Shown: positions 862 to 9,581 of the stretch, one piece after another | Numbering within the stretch: position 1 is the stretch's first letter | Layout: the number at the start of each line of letters is the position of its first letter | DNA from: a bacterium | Lineage (GTDB): Bacteria; Patescibacteriota; Minisyncoccia; Phycocordibacterales; DATDWN01 | NCBI GenBank assembly: GCA_037134875.1 | Contig: JBAXLH010000005.1 | Span: 1-58,523 of the forward strand | DNA length: 58,523 nt | Reading direction: 5' to 3' | Made by a program: the position numbers and the translations under genes | Notes under the pieces: generated by a model | Told to the model about the DNA's origin: nothing | Seen by the model: the letters and a program-made list of their open reading frames with translations, nothing else | Database searches by the model: none

Positions 862-2823
862 ATGTGTGGAATTGCCGGGGTTATTGACCCAAATCTAAAC
901 GAAAAGGAAAAGGTAATAGGAGATATGGTCTCCAGTATTATTCATCGAGGACCTGACGATGACGGTTTTTTTGTTGATGGATATGTTGGTCTCGGAATGA
1001 GACGACTTTCTATTATTGACCTCTCCTCTGGTAGACAACCTATCACATCAGCAGACGACAGATTTCTAATATTTTTCAACGGAGAAATTTATAACTATCA
1101 GAGTCTTCGAAAAGAGCTTATTGAAAAAGGATACAAATTTAAAACACAAACTGATACCGAAGTTATTCTTCATATGTATAGTTTGTACGGAGAAAAAATG
1201 CTTCCGAAATTGCGTGGAATGTTTGTATTTTGTATTTATGATACACAAGAAAAAACTGTATTTTTGGCGCGAGATTTTTTTGGGATAAAACCTCTGTACT
1301 ATCTTGTCCAAAAAACCGTAAGTTCTCCGAGAGATGAGGCAAGTATTGTAGCCTTTTCATCAGAAATAAAAAGCTTTCTCACATATCCGGGGTTTATTCC
1401 ACAGGTAAATGATAGCGCAGTCTATAACTATCTTTCATTTCAATACAATCCACTCACAGAAACTTTTTTCAAATCTGTCTACAAACTCCCTCCGGCACAT
1501 TGGATGAAATTGGATCTCAAAAAGAGTACCGCAGAAATAAAACAATACTGGTCATTTGAGTTTGGTGAGAAAAAAATATTACCCAAAAAAGCTGAATTGA
1601 AAGAAAATAAAGGTGTTGATTATGATGTTGAAATTGATCCAATTGATCCAAACAAAAATAGACTCGTACTACCCAAAACAGAAGAAAAGGTTGCTGAGGT
1701 TGTATACGAAACCATAAAGGATTCTGTGAGTCACCATATGATTGCCGATGTTCCAGTAGGTTCATTTCTCTCCGGAGGAGTTGATAGCAGTATTATTGCT
1801 ACACTTATGCAGGAAATCCGAGGGGACAAAAAAATCAAAACATTCACTGTAGGCTTTGAAGGACTTACCGAAGGAAATGAATCAAAAGAAACATCTGATT
1901 TTCTTGGTACCGACCACACAGAGATCACAGTTGGAGCAGATGAATATTTTAATATATTACCTAAAGCCGTCTGGCATTTTGACGAGCCAGTTGCTGATCC
2001 ATCAGCTATTGGACTCTATTTTGTGGCTCGTGAGGCCAGAAAACATGTCAAAGTTGTCCTGTCTGGCGAGGGTGCGGATGAGTTTTTTGGTGGGTACAAT
2101 ATCTATCTCGAGCCATTTGCTCGCAAGAAAATACTCTGGATTCCAAAAGTTATTCTAGAGTTTGTCACAAAAATTCCTTTTGAATTCAGGGGTAAAAATT
2201 ATGCGCGCCGAGCAAGTCAGAGACTCAAAGACTGGTACATTGGAAATGCCTCAATTTTCAAAAAAGACGAAATTAAAAAAATATGGAAGGGAAGTCCGCA
2301 AAACTTGCAATCTCTCAACCTACTCTACGCACACACCGCGCACCTCAGCGAATCGACACAAATGCAATACATCGATATTCACACATGGCTTGTCGGTGAT
2401 ATTTTGGCAAAAGCCGACAAAATGACAATGGCAAATTCTCTCGAGCTCCGTGTTCCATTTTTGGATACCGAGATTGCTCGACTTGCCTCTGTTTTGCCAG
2501 ACACTCTCAAATGGAACGGGGGGATAACAAAATATATTTTAAGAAAAGCATTTGAAAAAAGAATTCCAGAGACAACACGTAATAGAAAAAAACTCGGCTT
2601 TCCAACACCTCTCCGTGACTGGCTCACTCCAGAGAGAAAAGATATATATGAGAAAATATTGTCCAACGAATATATTTCTTCACATATGGATGTGCAATAT
2701 ATACAAAAAACAATCTCCGATCATACTGAGAAAAAAGCTGATAATTCACGAAAAATCTATCTCCTCCTTATGCTCGCTTTGTGGTATAATGTGTATATTA
2801 AAGGCGAAAAAATATCCGTATGA
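862..2823 (+). CDS. asnB: Glutamine-hydrolysing amidotransferase, asparagine synthase B family
   Basis: N-terminal MCGIAG, HRGPD, RLSIID, FNGEIYN, SGGVDSS, SGEGADE and LRVPFLD motifs. Confidence 0.93.
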   Translation: MCGIAGVIDPNLNEKEKVIGDMVSSIIHRGPDDDGFFVDGYVGLGMRRLSIIDLSSGRQPITSADDRFLIFFNGEIYNYQSLRKELIEKGYKFKTQTDTEVILHMYSLYGEKMLPKLRGMFVFCIYDTQEKTVFLARDFFGIKPLYYLVQKTVSSPRDEASIVAFSSEIKSFLTYPGFIPQVNDSAVYNYLSFQYNPLTETFFKSVYKLPPAHWMKLDLKKSTAEIKQYWSFEFGEKKILPKKAELKENKGVDYDVEIDPIDPNKNRLVLPKTEEKVAEVVYETIKDSVSHHMIADVPVGSFLSGGVDSSIIATLMQEIRGDKKIKTFTVGFEGLTEGNESKETSDFLGTDHTEITVGADEYFNILPKAVWHFDEPVADPSAIGLYFVAREARKHVKVVLSGEGADEFFGGYNIYLEPFARKKILWIPKVILEFVTKIPFEFRGKNYARRASQRLKDWYIGNASIFKKDEIKKIWKGSPQNLQSLNLLYAHTAHLSESTQMQYIDIHTWLVGDILAKADKMTMANSLELRVPFLDTEIARLASVLPDTLKWNGGITKYILRKAFEKRIPETTRNRKKLGFPTPLRDWLTPERKDIYEKILSNEYISSHMDVQYIQKTISDHTEKKADNSRKIYLLLMLALWYNVYIKGEKISV

Positions 2824-3875
2824 TTAATGTTATCAAAATTGTAGTACCAGCAGTCGTGACTTTCTTTTTGGGTATTCTTATTACTCCGTTTTTTACTCAC
2901 TATTTCTACAAGTACAAAATGTGGAAAAAATCCGCTCGCACAGAAGCAGGGGATATTACCACAGATGATTTTGCAAAGGTACATAACACAAAGGGTGAGT
3001 TATCTACACCTCGTCCAGGAGGAATTATTGTTTGGTTTTCTGTAATTCTCACGGTTTTTATTATTTATTTGTTGTCACTACTTTTCCCCGGTGACTTGAC
3101 CCACAAATTAAACTTTTTCAGCCGAAGTCAGACTCTTCTGCCGATAGCAGTATTTATTTTAGGATCACTCATTGGTCTTGCTGATGATCTCCTCCAAGTC
3201 TTCAGCACTGGCTCATATGCAAGAGACAATATCGCAAACAGAAAGGTTAAAATTGGTTGCATTTTTATAATAGGAGTTATTGTGAGTTACTGGTTTTATT
3301 TCAAACTTGCAATGACCACTATTCATATTCCATTTTGGTATGACATTGATTTGGGTATTATGATAATTCCATTTTTCATTATGGTTATGTTTGCAGTATT
3401 TTCTACAAGTATTATTGATGGGATTGACGGACTATCGGGAGGCGTTATGGCATCAATATTTACTGCATATTCAGCCATTGCCTTTTTTCAAAACCAAATC
3501 GATATTGCAACACTTTGTGCAGTTATCGCAGGTGGAACACTCGCTTTTCTTTGGTTTAATATTCCTCCGGCACGATTTTATATGAGCGAGACTGGGATGA
3601 TTGGGCTTACTGTTGTTTTGTCTGTTATTGCTTTTTTGACCAACACAGTTCTCCTTTTACCGATCATTGCGTTGCCACTCGTAGCAACATCTCTGTCTGC
3701 TATTATTCAAATGATCTCTTATAAATACTTCAACAAACATCGCGTATTTCGTGTTGCTCCACTCCATCATCATTTCGAGGCAATCGGCTGGTCAAAAGAA
3801 AAGGTTGTTATGCGTTATTGGATTGTAAGTGTCGTATGCGCAATCATTGGAGTTATTCTTTCTATTGTCAGTTAA
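2820..3875 (+). CDS. mraY: Phospho-N-acetylmuramoyl-pentapeptide transferase
   Basis: TPRPGG, GLADD, DGIDGLSGG, FNIPPARFYM and APLHHHFE motifs; multi-TM; ATGA overlap with asnB. Confidence 0.95.
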   Translation: MINVIKIVVPAVVTFFLGILITPFFTHYFYKYKMWKKSARTEAGDITTDDFAKVHNTKGELSTPRPGGIIVWFSVILTVFIIYLLSLLFPGDLTHKLNFFSRSQTLLPIAVFILGSLIGLADDLLQVFSTGSYARDNIANRKVKIGCIFIIGVIVSYWFYFKLAMTTIHIPFWYDIDLGIMIIPFFIMVMFAVFSTSIIDGIDGLSGGVMASIFTAYSAIAFFQNQIDIATLCAVIAGGTLAFLWFNIPPARFYMSETGMIGLTVVLSVIAFLTNTVLLLPIIALPLVATSLSAIIQMISYKYFNKHRVFRVAPLHHHFEAIGWSKEKVVMRYWIVSVVCAIIGVILSIVS

Positions 3876-3898: not shown

Positions 3899-5008
3899 AT
3901 GAAAACAATCAAAGTTGACATTCCATTTCTCATATCAATTTTTATTTTTGTCGTCGCTGGCTTTCTGATTTTTTCATCTGCATCCCTCGGCCTTTTATCA
4001 AATCCTAATGGGAAATATTCATCGGTGACATTCAGTCAAACATTTTTTGGTCTTGGACTAGGACTCATTTTTTGTTGGATAACGTCGAGAATTGATTATA
4101 GACTTTACAGAAATTACTCTTTCTGGCTTTTTATTCTCTCTATTCTAGCCACATTACTTGTTTTTGTACCTGGAATAGGAGTTCTCCACGGCGGAGCACA
4201 TAGATGGATCTATATTTTTGGTTACTCATTTCAACCATCCGAGCTTTTGAAAATTGGCTTTATATTTTATTTGTCAGCATGGTATGCGGGAGTTAAAGAA
4301 AAAGTAATTACATTCAAAGATGGTTTTCTACCTTTTCTTATTTTGTCAGCAATTGTCAGCGGAATTCTCTTGAAACAACCAGATACCGACACACTGATGA
4401 TTACAATTTTTTCTGGAATTGCAATTTTTCTCTCGGCTGGTGGAAAATGGAAACATCTTATTGCCTTCGGGGCTCTCGTTATTGTTGGATTTGTCGGGCT
4501 TGTTTTTGCCAGACCATACCTTATGAGTCGCGTGACAACATTTTTAAATCCAGCAGACAATGCGCTAGGTAGTGGTTATCAAATACAACAGTCTCTCATT
4601 GCAATTGGATCTGGAGGAATTTTTGGGAGAGGATTTGGTCAAAGTATCCAAAAGTTTGATAATCATTTGCCAGAACCAATAGGGGACTCAATTTTTGCTG
4701 TGGCCGGTGAAGAATTTGGCTTTCTAGGTACCACAGTAATACTCGCCCTTTTTGTTTTTTTTGCCTTTAGAGGCCTCAAAATAGCCAATCAAAGTCCCGA
4801 TATTTTCGGTAGACTAGTGACCGTTGGAATTGTTATAATGATTGTATCCCAGGCTTTTGTAAATATAAGCGCTATGGTGGGTGTTTTGCCTTTGTCTGGC
4901 ATAACACTACCATTTATTAGTCACGGTGGAACATCATTATTTATGACGCTTGCCGAGGTGGGAATTATTTTGAATATTTCAAAACACAGAAAATTGAAAA
5001 AAAACTAA
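3899..5008 (+). CDS. ftsW: SEDS peptidoglycan polymerase FtsW/RodA
   Basis: GAHRWI, FQPSELLK, KQPD, GYQIQQSLIAIGSGG, EEFGF and LPFISHGGTS; lies between mraY and murG. Confidence 0.93.
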   Translation: MKTIKVDIPFLISIFIFVVAGFLIFSSASLGLLSNPNGKYSSVTFSQTFFGLGLGLIFCWITSRIDYRLYRNYSFWLFILSILATLLVFVPGIGVLHGGAHRWIYIFGYSFQPSELLKIGFIFYLSAWYAGVKEKVITFKDGFLPFLILSAIVSGILLKQPDTDTLMITIFSGIAIFLSAGGKWKHLIAFGALVIVGFVGLVFARPYLMSRVTTFLNPADNALGSGYQIQQSLIAIGSGGIFGRGFGQSIQKFDNHLPEPIGDSIFAVAGEEFGFLGTTVILALFVFFAFRGLKIANQSPDIFGRLVTVGIVIMIVSQAFVNISAMVGVLPLSGITLPFISHGGTSLFMTLAEVGIILNISKHRKLKKN

Positions 5009-5009
5009 T

Positions 5010-6149
5010 ATGAAAATACTTTTAACTGGTGGAGGTAGTGGTGGACATTTTTATCCTATTATCGCCATTGCTGACGAAATAAACAACATCACAAAAGAAA
5101 ACCGTCTGGTCAGACCGGAAATTTTCTTTATGTCCAATGATCCATACAACGAAGGATTGCTCTACGAAAACAACATTACATTTGTCCAAGCGATGTCTGG
5201 AAAGGTTCGAGTCAAACCATCATTCACAAGTATTATTCTCAACTTTTTTGACTTCTTCAAAATTGTATTCGGCTCAATTGGCGCACTCTGGTCCGTGTTT
5301 AGTATCTATCCCGATGTTGTTTTTGGAAAAGGTGGATTTTCCAGTTTTCCAGCACTCCTCGCGGCACGGATTTTGAGAATCCCAGTTGTCATCCACGAAT
5401 CCGACAGTGCTCCCGGCAGAGTAAACCTCTGGGCCGGTAAATTTGCGAGGAAGATAGCACTATCCTATCCAGATGCAGCATCATATTTTCCAAAAGATAA
5501 AGTCGCGTACACCGGTAACCCAATCAGAAAAGAAGTTATGGAAGCTCTCTCGGTCGGTGCACACGAATACTTGAAACTCGATCCAAGCATTCCAACAATT
5601 CTCATTCTCGGTGGTTCTCAGGGTGCACAGATTATAAACGAAGTTATTATGGATGCACTTCCAAGACTTGTAGAACAGTATCAAGTTATTCATCAAACTG
5701 GAAAAAATAATATAAAAGTAATACAAGAAACAAGTGCTGTTATTCTCCAAGCAAATTCCCACAAAGACAGGTATCGACCATATGACTATCTGAATATTTT
5801 GACACAGAGAATGTCTGCTGGTGCATGTGACATCATTGTCTCTCGAGCAGGGTCAACTATTTTTGAAATTGCATCATGGGCAAAACCAAGTATTTTGATT
5901 CCCATAACAAATTCAAATGGAGATCATCAACGCAAAAATGCATACTCGTATGCTCGGTCAGGCGCCGCAATTGTCATTGAGGAAAAAAATCTAGTTGCAA
6001 ATGTTCTTGTGGCAGAAATTAACAGAATTATGGGAAATAAAGATGAGATTGAAAAAATGAAAGCATCCGCACAAGCGTTTGCAAAGAGAGATGCAGCTCG
6101 TCTGATCGCCGAAGAAATTGTAAAAATTGCTCTTGAGCACGAAAAATAA
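5010..6149 (+). CDS. murG: Lipid II GlcNAc transferase MurG
   Basis: GGGSGGHFYP, HESDSAPG, TGNPIR, GGSQGA, SRAG and HQRKNA motifs. Confidence 0.96.
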   Translation: MKILLTGGGSGGHFYPIIAIADEINNITKENRLVRPEIFFMSNDPYNEGLLYENNITFVQAMSGKVRVKPSFTSIILNFFDFFKIVFGSIGALWSVFSIYPDVVFGKGGFSSFPALLAARILRIPVVIHESDSAPGRVNLWAGKFARKIALSYPDAASYFPKDKVAYTGNPIRKEVMEALSVGAHEYLKLDPSIPTILILGGSQGAQIINEVIMDALPRLVEQYQVIHQTGKNNIKVIQETSAVILQANSHKDRYRPYDYLNILTQRMSAGACDIIVSRAGSTIFEIASWAKPSILIPITNSNGDHQRKNAYSYARSGAAIVIEEKNLVANVLVAEINRIMGNKDEIEKMKASAQAFAKRDAARLIAEEIVKIALEHEK

Positions 6150-6150
6150 A

Positions 6151-7635
6151 ATGGAACATACAAACAAAAAAGTTGTCACACGTTTTGCACCGTCTCCCAC
6201 AGGTTTTATGCATGTGGGAAATGTGCGTACTGCTCTCTATGCATGGCTTTTTGCGAGGAAAAGTAACGGTGTTTTCATTTTGCGAATCGAGGACACTGAT
6301 CAGAAAAGAGAAGTGGAAGGTTCTAGAGAACATATACTCAAAGCGCTGAAATGGTTGGGTTTAGATTGGGATCAAGGTCCAGATGTTGGAGGTCCTTTTA
6401 CCCCATATGTTCAATCAGAGAGACTAAAACAGCTTGATATTTATAAAAAATATGCAGAAAAACTTATAGAAAAGGGTTATGCATATGCAGATACAAAATC
6501 TGAAGAAGAACTTGATGCTTTGCGAAAAAAAGCTGAGAATGAAAAACGACCTTTCTTATATCGTGAACATAGACCTGAAAATACTCCAAAGTGGGAAGTT
6601 GGAATGCCTTTGCGATTTAAAATAAAAGAATTAAAACGAACAACTTGGAATGATATTGTGAGGGGTGAACTCTCTGCAGGACCGGAAGCTTTGGATGATT
6701 TTATTTTAATTAAAAGTGATAGTTTTCCTACGTATAATTTTGCTCATATTGTGGATGATATTGAAATGGGTGTAACTCATGTCGTTCGTGGACAAGAATT
6801 TATTTCTTCAACGCCAAATTATATTTCTGTGTATGAAGCATTAGGTGCCACAGAGCCTTCATATATAACAGTGCCTCCAATTATGGGAGCGGATGGCAAA
6901 AGAAAACTAGGCAAACGTGACGGTGCAAAAGACATTTTGGATTATGAAAAAGAAGGATATCTCCCTGACACGATGATAAATTTTCTTACGTTTCTCGGAT
7001 TTAATCCGGGTGGAGAAAAAGAAATATACACCAGAGAGGAACTTATTGATGTTTTTGACTTACAAAAAATTCACAAAGCTGGCGCACAATGGAGCGATGA
7101 CAAACTCGACTGGATGAACAAAGAACATATGAAGCTCTTGGATGAACATGAGAGAAACCAGAAAATATATGAGAGACTTTCTGAGAACAAAGAAATTTCA
7201 ACATATAAAAAATTGCAGGATATAAATTTTATGCAAAAAATATATCCGATAATTTTTGATAGAATTTCAAAATGGGGAGATATTGATTTGCTTGTTGGGG
7301 CAGGGGAGTTATCATACTTTTTTGAAGCACCTGAATATGATGAAAAACAGCTTGGCTGGAAAGGGGAGTCCCCTCGCGAAGAAACCAAAAAACATTTGGA
7401 GTGGGTTAAACAAACTCTCGAAAATGCCGACCCAGAATCATTTAGTGATAGTGAAAAGATAAAATCATTGATTTTTGATTATGCAACAGAAGTCGGTCGT
7501 GGTCAAGTATTATGGCCGTTGCGTGTTTCGTTATCTGGAAAAGAAAAAAGTCCTGATCCATTTACTCTTATATACATTCTCGGAAAAGAAGAAACTCTTT
7601 TACGTATAGAAACTGCAATTGCCAAAGTTTCATAA
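6151..7635 (+). CDS. gltX: Glutamate--tRNA ligase
   Basis: TRFAPSPTGFMHVGN, RIEDTD and KLGKRDG motifs; ATG at 6151 just after the murG stop. Confidence 0.96.
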   Translation: MEHTNKKVVTRFAPSPTGFMHVGNVRTALYAWLFARKSNGVFILRIEDTDQKREVEGSREHILKALKWLGLDWDQGPDVGGPFTPYVQSERLKQLDIYKKYAEKLIEKGYAYADTKSEEELDALRKKAENEKRPFLYREHRPENTPKWEVGMPLRFKIKELKRTTWNDIVRGELSAGPEALDDFILIKSDSFPTYNFAHIVDDIEMGVTHVVRGQEFISSTPNYISVYEALGATEPSYITVPPIMGADGKRKLGKRDGAKDILDYEKEGYLPDTMINFLTFLGFNPGGEKEIYTREELIDVFDLQKIHKAGAQWSDDKLDWMNKEHMKLLDEHERNQKIYERLSENKEISTYKKLQDINFMQKIYPIIFDRISKWGDIDLLVGAGELSYFFEAPEYDEKQLGWKGESPREETKKHLEWVKQTLENADPESFSDSEKIKSLIFDYATEVGRGQVLWPLRVSLSGKEKSPDPFTLIYILGKEETLLRIETAIAKVS

Positions 7636-7638
7636 ATA

Positions 7639-8943
7639 ATGAAAATAAACAAACCTGTAATCATAATTTGTATGTTTTTGATGCTAGGTACGACACCGGC
7701 ATCTTTTGTGTCTGCCGTAACCGCCACTAGTACAGCTACAAGTACCGCAGCAGATGAATTAAAGCTCAAAATTGAAGATAGAAACAACCAGATCAAACAA
7801 CTTGAATACGAAATCAGCCAGTATAACAATGAAGTCCAAAAAATAAGTGGCGAAGCAACAACTCTACAAAAAACACTTCAAACCTTGGACTTAACCCAGA
7901 AAAAAATCACCACAGACATCACGCTTACAGACAGAAAAATAAGCAAAACAACTCTGACAATAACTCAAACTCAAAATGAGATTGTGGACATTCAAAACAG
8001 TGTTGCCCAGAACAAAAAAGCAATATATTCTCTCATTCAAAATATCAGGATGATAGAGGATAATAATATCGTCGCTCAATTTTTGTTTAGCAAAAACCTT
8101 GGTGACATATGGACCGATGTTGATACAATGAACCAAGTCCAGAATCAAATAAAGATTAAATCCGACCAGCTTAGGCTCCTACAAGCTAGTTTGGAGAATA
8201 AAAAAAACCAACTAGGTACGCAGAAAAAGAATTTGAGTTCGCTTAAACAGGATCTAAGTGGCAAAAAACAGGCCGTAGAAGTCACAAAACAAGAGAAAGC
8301 AACCATCCTTGCCCAGACAAAAAACAAAGAACAGGTCTACAAAGAAATCGTAAAAACAAAAGAGGAACAGAAAGCTCAATTTGAAAAAGAGCTGTATGAT
8401 TTTGAATCACAACTCAACCTTGTAGTGGACAAGAGTAAATATCCATCAGCACGGATTGGACTCTTTGCATGGCCACTCGACAACGCATATATTACACAAC
8501 GATTTGGTGTGACAGTTGATTCCAAGAGACTATATTTGTCCGGCTCTCATAATGGAATTGATTTCAGAGCAACTGTAGGCACGCGAGTCAAAAGCATTGG
8601 GAGCGGAATTGTTGTGGGTACTGGCAACACTGATATATATCCAGGATGTTATTCGTTTGGAAAATGGGTTATGATTGATCATCAAAATGGACTCTCATCA
8701 ATATACGGTCATTTGTCGGTTATTAGCGTATCAAAAGGTCAAGAATTGCAAGCTGGAGACCTAATTGGATACAGTGGAAACACTGGATACACAACAGGCC
8801 CACATTTGCACCTCGGAATATATGCAACTCAAGGTGTGAGAATCGAACAATTTGTAAACAGTCGGGGATGCAAGCAAGCAATAATTCCACTCGCTGACAC
8901 AAAAGCATATTTGGATCCAATGGCATATATGCCAGCATATTAA
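7639..8943 (+). CDS. Secreted coiled-coil + M23 metallopeptidase (EnvC/CwlO-like murein hydrolase)
   Basis: Signal peptide, long Q/K/L coiled coil, HNGIDF and GPHLHL zinc motifs. Confidence 0.88.
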   Translation: MKINKPVIIICMFLMLGTTPASFVSAVTATSTATSTAADELKLKIEDRNNQIKQLEYEISQYNNEVQKISGEATTLQKTLQTLDLTQKKITTDITLTDRKISKTTLTITQTQNEIVDIQNSVAQNKKAIYSLIQNIRMIEDNNIVAQFLFSKNLGDIWTDVDTMNQVQNQIKIKSDQLRLLQASLENKKNQLGTQKKNLSSLKQDLSGKKQAVEVTKQEKATILAQTKNKEQVYKEIVKTKEEQKAQFEKELYDFESQLNLVVDKSKYPSARIGLFAWPLDNAYITQRFGVTVDSKRLYLSGSHNGIDFRATVGTRVKSIGSGIVVGTGNTDIYPGCYSFGKWVMIDHQNGLSSIYGHLSVISVSKGQELQAGDLIGYSGNTGYTTGPHLHLGIYATQGVRIEQFVNSRGCKQAIIPLADTKAYLDPMAYMPAY

Positions 8944-9093: not shown

Positions 9094-9170
9094 ATATTGT
9101 GCGACGTGGTCTGTAGAGAGAGAAAACCACTTCCCTCAACCAAAAATAGACAAAAAAAACAAAACTCGCA

Positions 9171-9581
9171 TTACGCGAGATTTTTAAAATTTTTTATTTC
9201 TACAGAGAATACGTTCATCCTATCCTCCGATTTTTTTCTCTTGGTCATTTGAGATTGTATGATAAGTACATCATCTTCCGAGAACCGGATTTCCATTATG
9301 TACTCCCCTCTTTTGAGTTCATTTTTTGTGATGTGACATACAATGAGAAATGCATCCTGAAAAAGAAGTACGATAATATGTTTGACTCGTTCAAGCATAT
9401 TATTTCTATTTATTGTATGTGTAGGTTCACAACTCTCTTCACAAATGATTTTTATGATATCCAAAAAATGATTGACGACGATATATCCGTTTTTTGTCAT
9501 CCGGAGAATAGTCGGATCAATCATCAAACGAATTTCTTTTGGTGCGAGGGACATAAGACCACATCTTCCAGTACATAGCAT
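9171..9581 (-). CDS. Hypothetical protein (start uncertain, 9581 or 9554)
   Basis: Open frame with A-rich coding-strand bias and no recognisable motif; competes with the + ORF at 9249-9578. Confidence 0.35.
   Translation of the reverse strand: MLCTGRCGLMSLAPKEIRLMIDPTILRMTKNGYIVVNHFLDIIKIICEESCEPTHTINRNNMLERVKHIIVLLFQDAFLIVCHITKNELKRGEYIMEIRFSEDDVLIIQSQMTKRKKSEDRMNVFSVEIKNFKNLA

Follow-up and report, generated by a model that had tools for sequence, protein, structure and literature searches.

Does a gene that databases call an asparagine synthase make asparagine when it lies inside a cell wall operon, or does its product act on the wall itself? The question is raised by asnB, found on the forward strand at positions 862–2,823 of a 58,523-nucleotide stretch of Patescibacteriota DNA (hereafter the window; contig JBAXLH010000005.1 of GenBank assembly GCA_037134875.1), which is contig C5 of genome G000 (770,998 bp, 18 contigs, completeness score 100%). 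The gene lies between dacA and mraY and encodes a glutamine-dependent amidotransferase of 653 residues, which Pfam and NCBIfam profiles, BLASTP, phylogenetic trees, a structural model predicted with AlphaFold2 (AF2) and Foldseek searches assign to the AsnB/LtsA type. All public annotations of its close homologues, whose source labels read Patescibacteria, Paceibacterota, Zambryskibacteria or Minisyncoccia, are asparagine synthase; the initial annotation of the window had instead proposed peptidoglycan amidation. These labels mark G000 as a genome of the Parcubacteria, in agreement with the initial annotation. We conclude that the enzyme probably catalyzes the glutamine-dependent amidation of the ε-carboxyl group of meso-diaminopimelate (mDAP) on a peptidoglycan precursor and is co-expressed with MraY. 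The preference for amidation over asparagine synthesis is supported by the failure to find an asparaginyl-tRNA synthetase (AsnRS) in the genomes of the family and order, by 43% sequence identity with Bacillus AsnB versus 28% with AsnO and Escherichia coli AsnB, by a tree in which the enzyme groups with the AsnB/LtsA types (support 100/99), and by linkage to mraY in 21 of 23 loci of relatives.

In the reaction that we propose, the N-terminal nucleophile (Ntn) glutaminase domain would use Cys2 to free ammonia from glutamine, and the PP-loop synthetase domain would adenylate a carboxylate and hand the ammonia over to it, as the chemistry of the family and the conserved residues suggest. The acceptor would most likely be the free ε-carboxyl at the D-centre of mDAP, either in the UDP-MurNAc-peptide or else, as the coupling to mraY suggests, in lipid I or lipid II. 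The amidated stem peptide would be formed ahead of export by the co-transcribed MraY-FtsW-MurG machinery, and the enzyme would be cytoplasmic and would not serve to supply translation with asparagine. According to passages in PMC5485061, PMC8554201 and PMC7920481, the AsnB proteins of Bacillus subtilis and Listeria monocytogenes and LtsA of Corynebacterium glutamicum amidate mDAP, and LtsA works on lipid intermediates; the precedents that the initial annotation had named, B. subtilis AsnB and Corynebacterium LtsA, are thus backed by the literature (PMC5485061, PMC8554201).

Domain organization and catalytic residues of the asnB product

The product matches the Pfam families GATase_7 and Asn_synthase (E 2.7e-99). 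Against PF00733 it scores 333.6 bits (cut-off 21) over residues 282–642, and against TIGR01536 (asparagine synthase, glutamine-hydrolyzing) 498 bits (cut-off 267), while its score with NF006949, the equivalog model of asparagine synthase B, is 332.5 bits and hence below the cut-off of 499. The glutaminase domain occupies residues 1–235 (positions 862–1,566, forward strand), as delimited by Pfam GATase_7/GATase_6 and by alignment with E. coli AsnB. The protein starts with MCG, in which Cys2 is the nucleophile, and its Arg48, Asn73-Gly74-Glu75 and Asp98 align with Arg49, Asn74-Gly75-Glu76 and Asp98 of E. coli AsnB; in an alignment of homologues the catalytic and glutamine-binding columns are nearly invariant. 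The C-terminal PP-loop synthetase domain (positions 1,681–2,820, forward strand; PF00733 and alignments) carries the motifs SGGVDSS (residues 304–310) and SGEGADE (residues 401–407), a long loop (residues 413–500), and Lys517, which occupies the position of Arg387 of E. coli AsnB. The loop, which follows the GGY motif, measures 88 residues in the query, 65 in AsnO and 28 in E. coli AsnB. Both the lysine in place of Arg387 and the long loop fit the criteria given in PMC8554201; for Asp384, the alignments give no clear counterpart. We also considered the long loop and the absent arginine as markers of mDAP-amidating enzymes and rejected them, since 86 other long AsnB representatives and the AsnB-like proteins of the candidate phyla radiation (CPR) that are unlinked to mraY share both.

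The AF2 model of the query has a mean predicted local distance difference test (pLDDT) score of 93.7 and a predicted template modelling (pTM) score of 0.92. A Foldseek search with this model matched TsnB9 (7YLZ, E 4.6e-33) and E. coli AsnB (1CT9, E 3.1e-31), with target-normalised template modelling (TM) scores of 0.81–0.83, as well as human ASNS.

Phylogenetic position of the enzyme

The reference set consisted of AsnB (632 residues) and AsnO (614 residues) of Bacillus tequilensis and Bacillus velezensis, AsnB of E. coli K-12, the sole AsnB of a Rhodococcus (an LtsA ortholog) and Streptomyces paralogues, the Rhodococcus and Streptomyces assemblies being contaminated. In BLASTP comparisons the query was 43% identical to Bacillus AsnB over its full length (502 bits), 37% to the Rhodococcus protein, and 28% to each of AsnO and E. 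coli AsnB. For orientation, B. subtilis AsnB is 56% identical to LtsA and 50% to AsnB1 of Lactiplantibacillus plantarum, the corresponding values for AsnO and AsnH being 23–31% (Dajkovic et al., PMC5485061). An AsnH-like paralogue of 747 residues was not found in the B. tequilensis and B. velezensis genomes.

Sequences for the trees were sampled from an exhaustive profile search over 1.84 billion representatives. FastTree, applied to the query, 147 representatives and the references, placed the query in a clade of 65 rows with a support of 100, which also includes Bacillus AsnB, Rhodococcus AsnB, one Kyrpidia protein and one Ruminococcus protein. AsnO, the Streptomyces paralogues, E. coli AsnB and 86 other representatives fall outside it, and cluster look-ups on the representatives outside the query's clade returned no names. 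A quick IQ-TREE run agreed with this placement. In a careful IQ-TREE analysis, from which two long branches were removed and which was rooted on the AsnO type, the clade uniting AsnB/LtsA and the query received ultrafast bootstrap (UFBoot) and Shimodaira–Hasegawa-like approximate likelihood ratio (SH-aLRT) supports of 100/99. Within it the query's own clade (100/100) is nested in a 94/98 clade alongside the Bacillus–Rhodococcus clade (100/100). In the phylogeny that the initial annotation had called for, the query therefore groups with the AsnB/LtsA types, here represented by proxies, and apart from AsnO and E. coli AsnB.

We also scored the sequences against two profiles, one of the AsnB/LtsA side and one of the sequences outside it, both built without the query's subclade. 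Members of the query's clade leaned toward the AsnB/LtsA side by 5 to 61 bits, the query itself by 42. Among the controls, held-out members of that side gave +80 to +195 bits and held-out outsiders −105 to −172 bits; other CPR AsnB-like proteins gave −67 to −195 bits. On these trees and profiles, the lineage of the query belongs to the AsnB/LtsA group as a distinct and deeply branching member.

Conservation of the asnB–mraY linkage

In the window, the stop codon of asnB shares the tetranucleotide ATGA (positions 2,820–2,823, forward strand) with the start codon of mraY, the gene for phospho-MurNAc-pentapeptide translocase (positions 2,820–3,875, forward strand; TIGR00445, E 2.1e-44; PF00953). 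An asnB ortholog is present in 24 of 24 genomes of the same family (f1), with 53–75% identity, and across at least 14 genera, where it is mostly free of stops. mraY follows asnB in 21 of the 23 assessable loci of relatives, and dacA precedes it in most of them, so that the conserved linkage to mraY, once surveyed, holds within the family. The junction is an overlap or a gap of at most 6 nt in about ten loci, a gap of 24–35 nt in six and longer in the remainder; overlaps of 4 nt occur in three relatives besides the window. The ATGA overlap, from which the initial annotation had read translational coupling to mraY, is thereby confirmed in the window and recurs in those three relatives, without being universal, given the gaps of 24–35 nt or more elsewhere. 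Among relatives, the coupling is frequent but not fixed.

A different arrangement was observed in G032, a genome of family f9, in which the order is aspS...dacA-mraY-ftsW-murG-gltX-M23-asnB, with asnB 40 nt past the M23 gene at the far end of the operon. Three genomes of sister families (G033, G035 and G038), as well as a second locus of G029, have an operon that runs into mraY-ftsW-murG-gltX with asnB absent. dacA lies directly 5′ of mraY in the asnB-less loci of G033, G038 and G029, and no DacA match was found at the G035 locus. From the two gene orders, taken together with the asnB-less operons of the sister families, it follows that asnB was recruited specifically, twice and at different positions, into this lineage's operon for the membrane steps of wall synthesis. 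Its neighbourhood with mraY, kept in 21 of 23 loci, is not due to chance.

Regarding the two loci of G029, which belongs to a neighbouring family, we observed that this genome has two mraY genes (G029:C3:38017-40931 and G029:C1:14600-20000). One copy is 70% identical to mraY of the window and has asnB upstream; the other is 52% identical and forms part of a complete dacA-mraY-ftsW-murG-gltX operon without asnB. The pair suggests transfer or duplication of an asnB–mraY module.

The linkage does not extend over the phylum. Of 400 evenly sampled Patescibacteria, 68 have AsnB-like genes (30–37% identity), and none of the 29 such loci that were fetched has mraY, dacA or ftsW within 1.5 kb. The wider synteny survey that the initial annotation had proposed thus restricts the linkage to the family of the query and two families close to it.

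The acceptor and the Mur ligases

mDAP fits as the acceptor because a relative from the same family with a full ligase set, G019, encodes a MurE of the mDAP type (NF001126, 571 bits, cut-off 373), with the DNPR motif at residue 417. In G000 itself, three hidden Markov models (HMMs) and tblastn with the relative's proteins found no MurD, no MurE, and no canonical MurC or MurF. MurA, MurB and Ddl are retained, and there are just two genes of the Mur ligase family. One of these (G000:C2:87210-88742, reverse strand) encodes a MurC/Mpl-like ligase of 511 residues, which scores 278 bits with the murC and 265 bits with the mpl model, both under cut-off, and is 24% identical to the relative's MurC; the other (G000:C1:29286-30584, reverse strand) encodes a MurF-like paralogue and adjoins PBP2/FtsI. 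No MurT-like ligase was found in G000, which has only these two Mur-family genes.

A similar depletion was seen across family f1 (G001–G024), whose genomes have zero to five Mur ligase matches each, with a MurE-like match in six of 24. Several of them, at 97–99% completeness, have a single Mur ligase match, and all keep asnB-mraY-ftsW. Within the family, orthologs of the Mpl-like ligase occur only in G006, G011 and G012. In G000 a large serine recombinase resembling CcrB/XisF (G000:C2:84630-86282, forward strand; E 3e-35) lies two genes from the Mpl/MurC-like ligase, with miaA between, and this patchily distributed ligase may sit on mobile DNA. A further peculiarity concerns MurA (G019 L075:79-1599; G000:C2:78927-80429), which is extended at its N-terminus by about 70 residues resembling a helix-turn-helix (HTH) antitoxin domain (TIGR03070, E 1.6e-11); the extension is kept in G000 with 78% identity from residue 6.

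It is a reasonable inference that G000 takes up a ready-made peptide for its wall precursor. More tentatively, we consider it possible that these organisms are epibionts that build their wall on stem peptides scavenged from the host, and that AsnB amidates the mDAP peptide after its import, once it is linked to lipid, which would mark the epibiont's own wall apart from the host wall attacked by its secreted M23 and lysozyme-like hydrolases. That amidation would protect the producer's own wall against hydrolases is suggested by analogy, the sole basis being mutant phenotypes of B. subtilis and C. glutamicum (PMC5485061). The more surprising result is that Mur ligases have been lost around a core, AsnB-MraY-MurG-FtsW, that has been kept.

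The same glutaminase and adenylation chemistry could also be directed at another carboxylate of the envelope, namely the α-carboxyl of D-iso-glutamate (iGlu), a D-Asp side branch, as with AsnH, or a sugar acid of a wall polymer. We regard this, the main rival to amidation of mDAP, as rather unlikely, even though the operon context says only "cell wall", the loop and Lys517 are not specific to mDAP, and the clade forms a separate deep lineage. The third-position residue is likewise not fixed by a genome that lacks MurE. As for iGlu, amidation of its α-carboxyl is elsewhere the job of MurT/GatD, and the lack of a MurT-like ligase would leave this modification without another candidate enzyme; we know of no characterized AsnB-family enzyme that amidates iGlu. 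Against such acceptors stand the closest lineages of known function, which are mDAP amidotransferases, and the mDAP-type MurE with its DNPR motif in relatives. In addition, the patescibacterial AsnB homologues with a glycan-like context form a different group and do not lie beside mraY.

Several points weigh against amidation of mDAP and deserve to be stated together. The assayed enzymes were represented by orthologs from B. tequilensis, B. velezensis and Rhodococcus sp., and the function assigned to this CPR clade is a prediction from sequence. The long loop and Lys517 would set the query apart from true asparagine synthetases and do not specify mDAP. The query's margin of +42 bits in the HMM comparison is below that of the held-out AsnB/LtsA-side members, and its clade is deep-branching. 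When E. coli AsnB was included, approximately unbiased (AU) tests decided neither the root nor whether the position is basal or nested (p 0.59–0.61), and the quick free tree even came out slightly worse than the constrained ones; the placement was settled only because two long branches were dropped and a careful tree search was made. Because G000 is without MurE, its own stem-peptide chemistry is deduced from relatives. Finally, B. subtilis AsnB also complements an E. coli asparagine auxotroph, so that some asparagine synthesis is possible (PMC5485061).

Asparagine supply and charging of tRNA-Asn

G000 contains one Asn_synthase gene, and AsnA was not found in it. Across 41 genomes of the family and order, G000 included, no AsnRS match (TIGR00457) exceeds the cut-off. 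In G000 the asnS model picks up two class IIb enzymes, which NCBIfam identifies as a bacterial-type aspartyl-tRNA synthetase (AspRS; 621 bits) and a lysyl-tRNA synthetase (LysRS). The same genome encodes GatB (521 bits) and GatA (552 bits), and its contig C1 carries a tRNA-Asn(GTT). Since AsnRS was not found and a non-discriminating AspRS, GatA, GatB and tRNA-Asn are present, Asn-tRNA is, on the gene content, made on the tRNA by way of the non-discriminating AspRS and GatCAB, and free asparagine has no way into translation in this lineage. No other single argument speaks as strongly against a biosynthetic role of AsnB as this missing route.

Some observations on these genes are worth recording. 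The tRNA-Asn(GTT) gene (G000:C1:50334-50687, forward strand) has a 279-nt intron in the anticodon loop, and ARAGORN detects it only with introns allowed. A class IIb synthetase of about 450 residues encoded near asnB in relatives, which scores 210–270 bits with the asnS model, was considered as a candidate AsnRS and rejected, because it scores 448 bits (cut-off 353) with NCBIfam NF003483; these proteins are archaeal-type Asp-tRNA(Asn) ligases. The AspRS encoded upstream of the wall operon varies in type within the family (examples are G000:C12:2693-4189, reverse strand; G017:C14:2123-3430; G019:C2:81770-83068). The bacterial form without the insertion domain (498 residues) occurs in G000 and about ten relatives, the archaeal-type non-discriminating form in about eleven others, and another type, which scores about 130 bits with the asnS model, in three.

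That the enzyme is a genuine asparagine synthetase supplying free L-asparagine, its position in the wall operon being incidental, is therefore very improbable. Its score with TIGR01536, far above cut-off, and the unanimous public annotations would speak for such a role, as does the ability of all three B. subtilis paralogues to complement an E. coli asparagine auxotroph (PMC5485061). These points are opposed by the complete tRNA-dependent route and the missing AsnRS, by the score under the NF006949 cut-off and the lysine at the Arg387 position, by a placement in the wall operon that is conserved and arose twice, and by sister families of the same lifestyle that do without the gene altogether.

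Lineage-specific insertions

The charged segment of about 35 residues between the two domains, to which the initial annotation had drawn attention, is present at residues ~238–275. Its core is an insertion in the interdomain linker, residues 241–272 (positions 1,582–1,677, forward strand), which is gapped in 97–99% of the 120 closest homologues, whose linker has about ten residues. The insertion is predicted to be disordered (pLDDT 43–66 in the AF2 model), and on the alignment it is private to this genome and not characteristic of the enzyme family. Its appearance is that of an in-frame linker insertion that arose recently and is tolerated, rather than that of a functional module. A role as a membrane-targeting or regulatory module was considered and rejected, since the segment is private to the genome and predicted to be disordered; for the same reasons it is uninformative on mechanism. 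An imperfect 20-nt direct repeat surrounds it (positions 1,577–1,686, forward strand), with copies at 1,577–1,596 and 1,667–1,686 that are 80% identical and exactly 90 nt apart. We count as a second private insertion of the query a smaller, lineage-specific one at residues 151–160 (positions 1,312–1,341, forward strand), which has 77% gaps in the 120 homologues and a pLDDT of about 72. These two insertions could be taken as marks of a decaying or non-functional remnant carried in the operon, yet this is hardly credible for an intact frame of 653 residues that keeps every catalytic motif, has orthologs of 53–75% identity over at least 14 genera, mostly without stops, and yields a confident AF2 model outside the insertions.

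Other genes of the wall block

The order dacA-asnB-mraY-ftsW-murG and the overlap of asnB with mraY, as given in the initial annotation, agree with the coordinates of the open reading frames, the family profiles and the sequence. All genes of the block are on the forward strand. The first, at positions 41–847 with its 5′ end close to the contig start, encodes a dacA-like D,D-carboxypeptidase of family S11 (PF00768, E 2.6e-30). Downstream of mraY follow a peptidoglycan polymerase gene of the ftsW/rodA family (3,899–5,008; PF01098, E 1.7e-93), murG (5,010–6,149; TIGR01133, E 2.5e-68), and gltX (6,127–7,635; TIGR00464, 438 bits), which encodes glutamyl-tRNA synthetase (GluRS) and, by synteny, is a conserved member of the block across the whole order. 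The longest gltX frame, which begins with TTG, shares its first 23 nt with the end of murG (6,127–6,149), and the real start may lie farther downstream. The last gene of the block encodes an M23 peptidoglycan endopeptidase (7,639–8,943; PF01551). A hairpin scan located the first terminator-like hairpin past the block at 9,165–9,179, where it reads on both strands, and found no comparable intergenic hairpin between 847 and 8,943.

Significance

The amidation chemistry and the enzyme family are already well known from Firmicutes and Actinobacteria. A search of the literature available to us retrieved no paper connecting AsnB with peptidoglycan in Patescibacteria or the CPR. The label "asparagine synthase" in these Paceibacteria probably does not denote amino acid biosynthesis, and metabolic reconstructions of CPR bacteria should not list it under that heading. 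Our reading predicts an amidated mDAP-type wall in an uncultured lineage, which would bear on sensitivity to lysozyme and endopeptidases and on how an epibiont escapes the wall hydrolases that it secretes. The organism also offers a clean natural case, in which a role in asparagine supply is genetically excluded by the missing AsnRS.

Comparison with known systems

E. coli AsnB and B. subtilis AsnO resemble the query in fold and catalytic motifs. They differ from it in sequence (28% identity), in the length of the post-GGY loop (28 and 65 versus 88 residues) and in having arginine where the query has Lys517; both lie outside the query's clade in all trees, and the query falls below the cut-off of NF006949. 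AsnH of Lactococcus lactis is an AsnB-family enzyme that modifies a peptidoglycan peptide, in that it amidates the D-Asp of the cross-bridge, and does not make asparagine; the initial annotation had named it as a precedent too. Unlike the putative reaction of the query, that of AsnH, which was compared by its description, needs an L-Lys stem and a D-Asp branch, whereas the query's relatives have an mDAP-type MurE.

The AsnB proteins of B. subtilis and L. monocytogenes (PMC5485061, PMC8554201) have, like the query, two domains and a similar length (632 versus 653 residues). Bacillus AsnB, whose B. tequilensis ortholog gave the 43% identity over the full length, further shares with it the long loop after GGY, a lysine at the position of E. 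coli Arg387 and the KLGFPxP motif, and both belong to a common clade in the trees. To our knowledge, Bacillus asnB is not in a dcw (division and cell wall) or mraY operon. Bacillus also differs in having AsnRS and further AsnB paralogues, and the query's CPR clade differs from Bacillus AsnB in forming a separate branch, in its lower profile margin and in its location inside the mraY operon, with which it often overlaps.

A further parallel is offered by C. glutamicum LtsA and Mycobacterium tuberculosis AsnB, which amidate mDAP on lipid intermediates. As far as we know, Corynebacteriales are without AsnRS. The organism of the window resembles the Actinobacteria in lacking AsnRS and in relying on GatCAB, which frees its AsnB homologue from asparagine supply. 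Rhodococcus AsnB, with its 37% identity, served here as a proxy for LtsA and is not the assayed LtsA. Actinobacteria differ in that they also amidate iGlu with MurT/GatD, no MurT having been found in G000. An action on lipid-linked precursors like that of LtsA would fit the coupling of the query gene to mraY.

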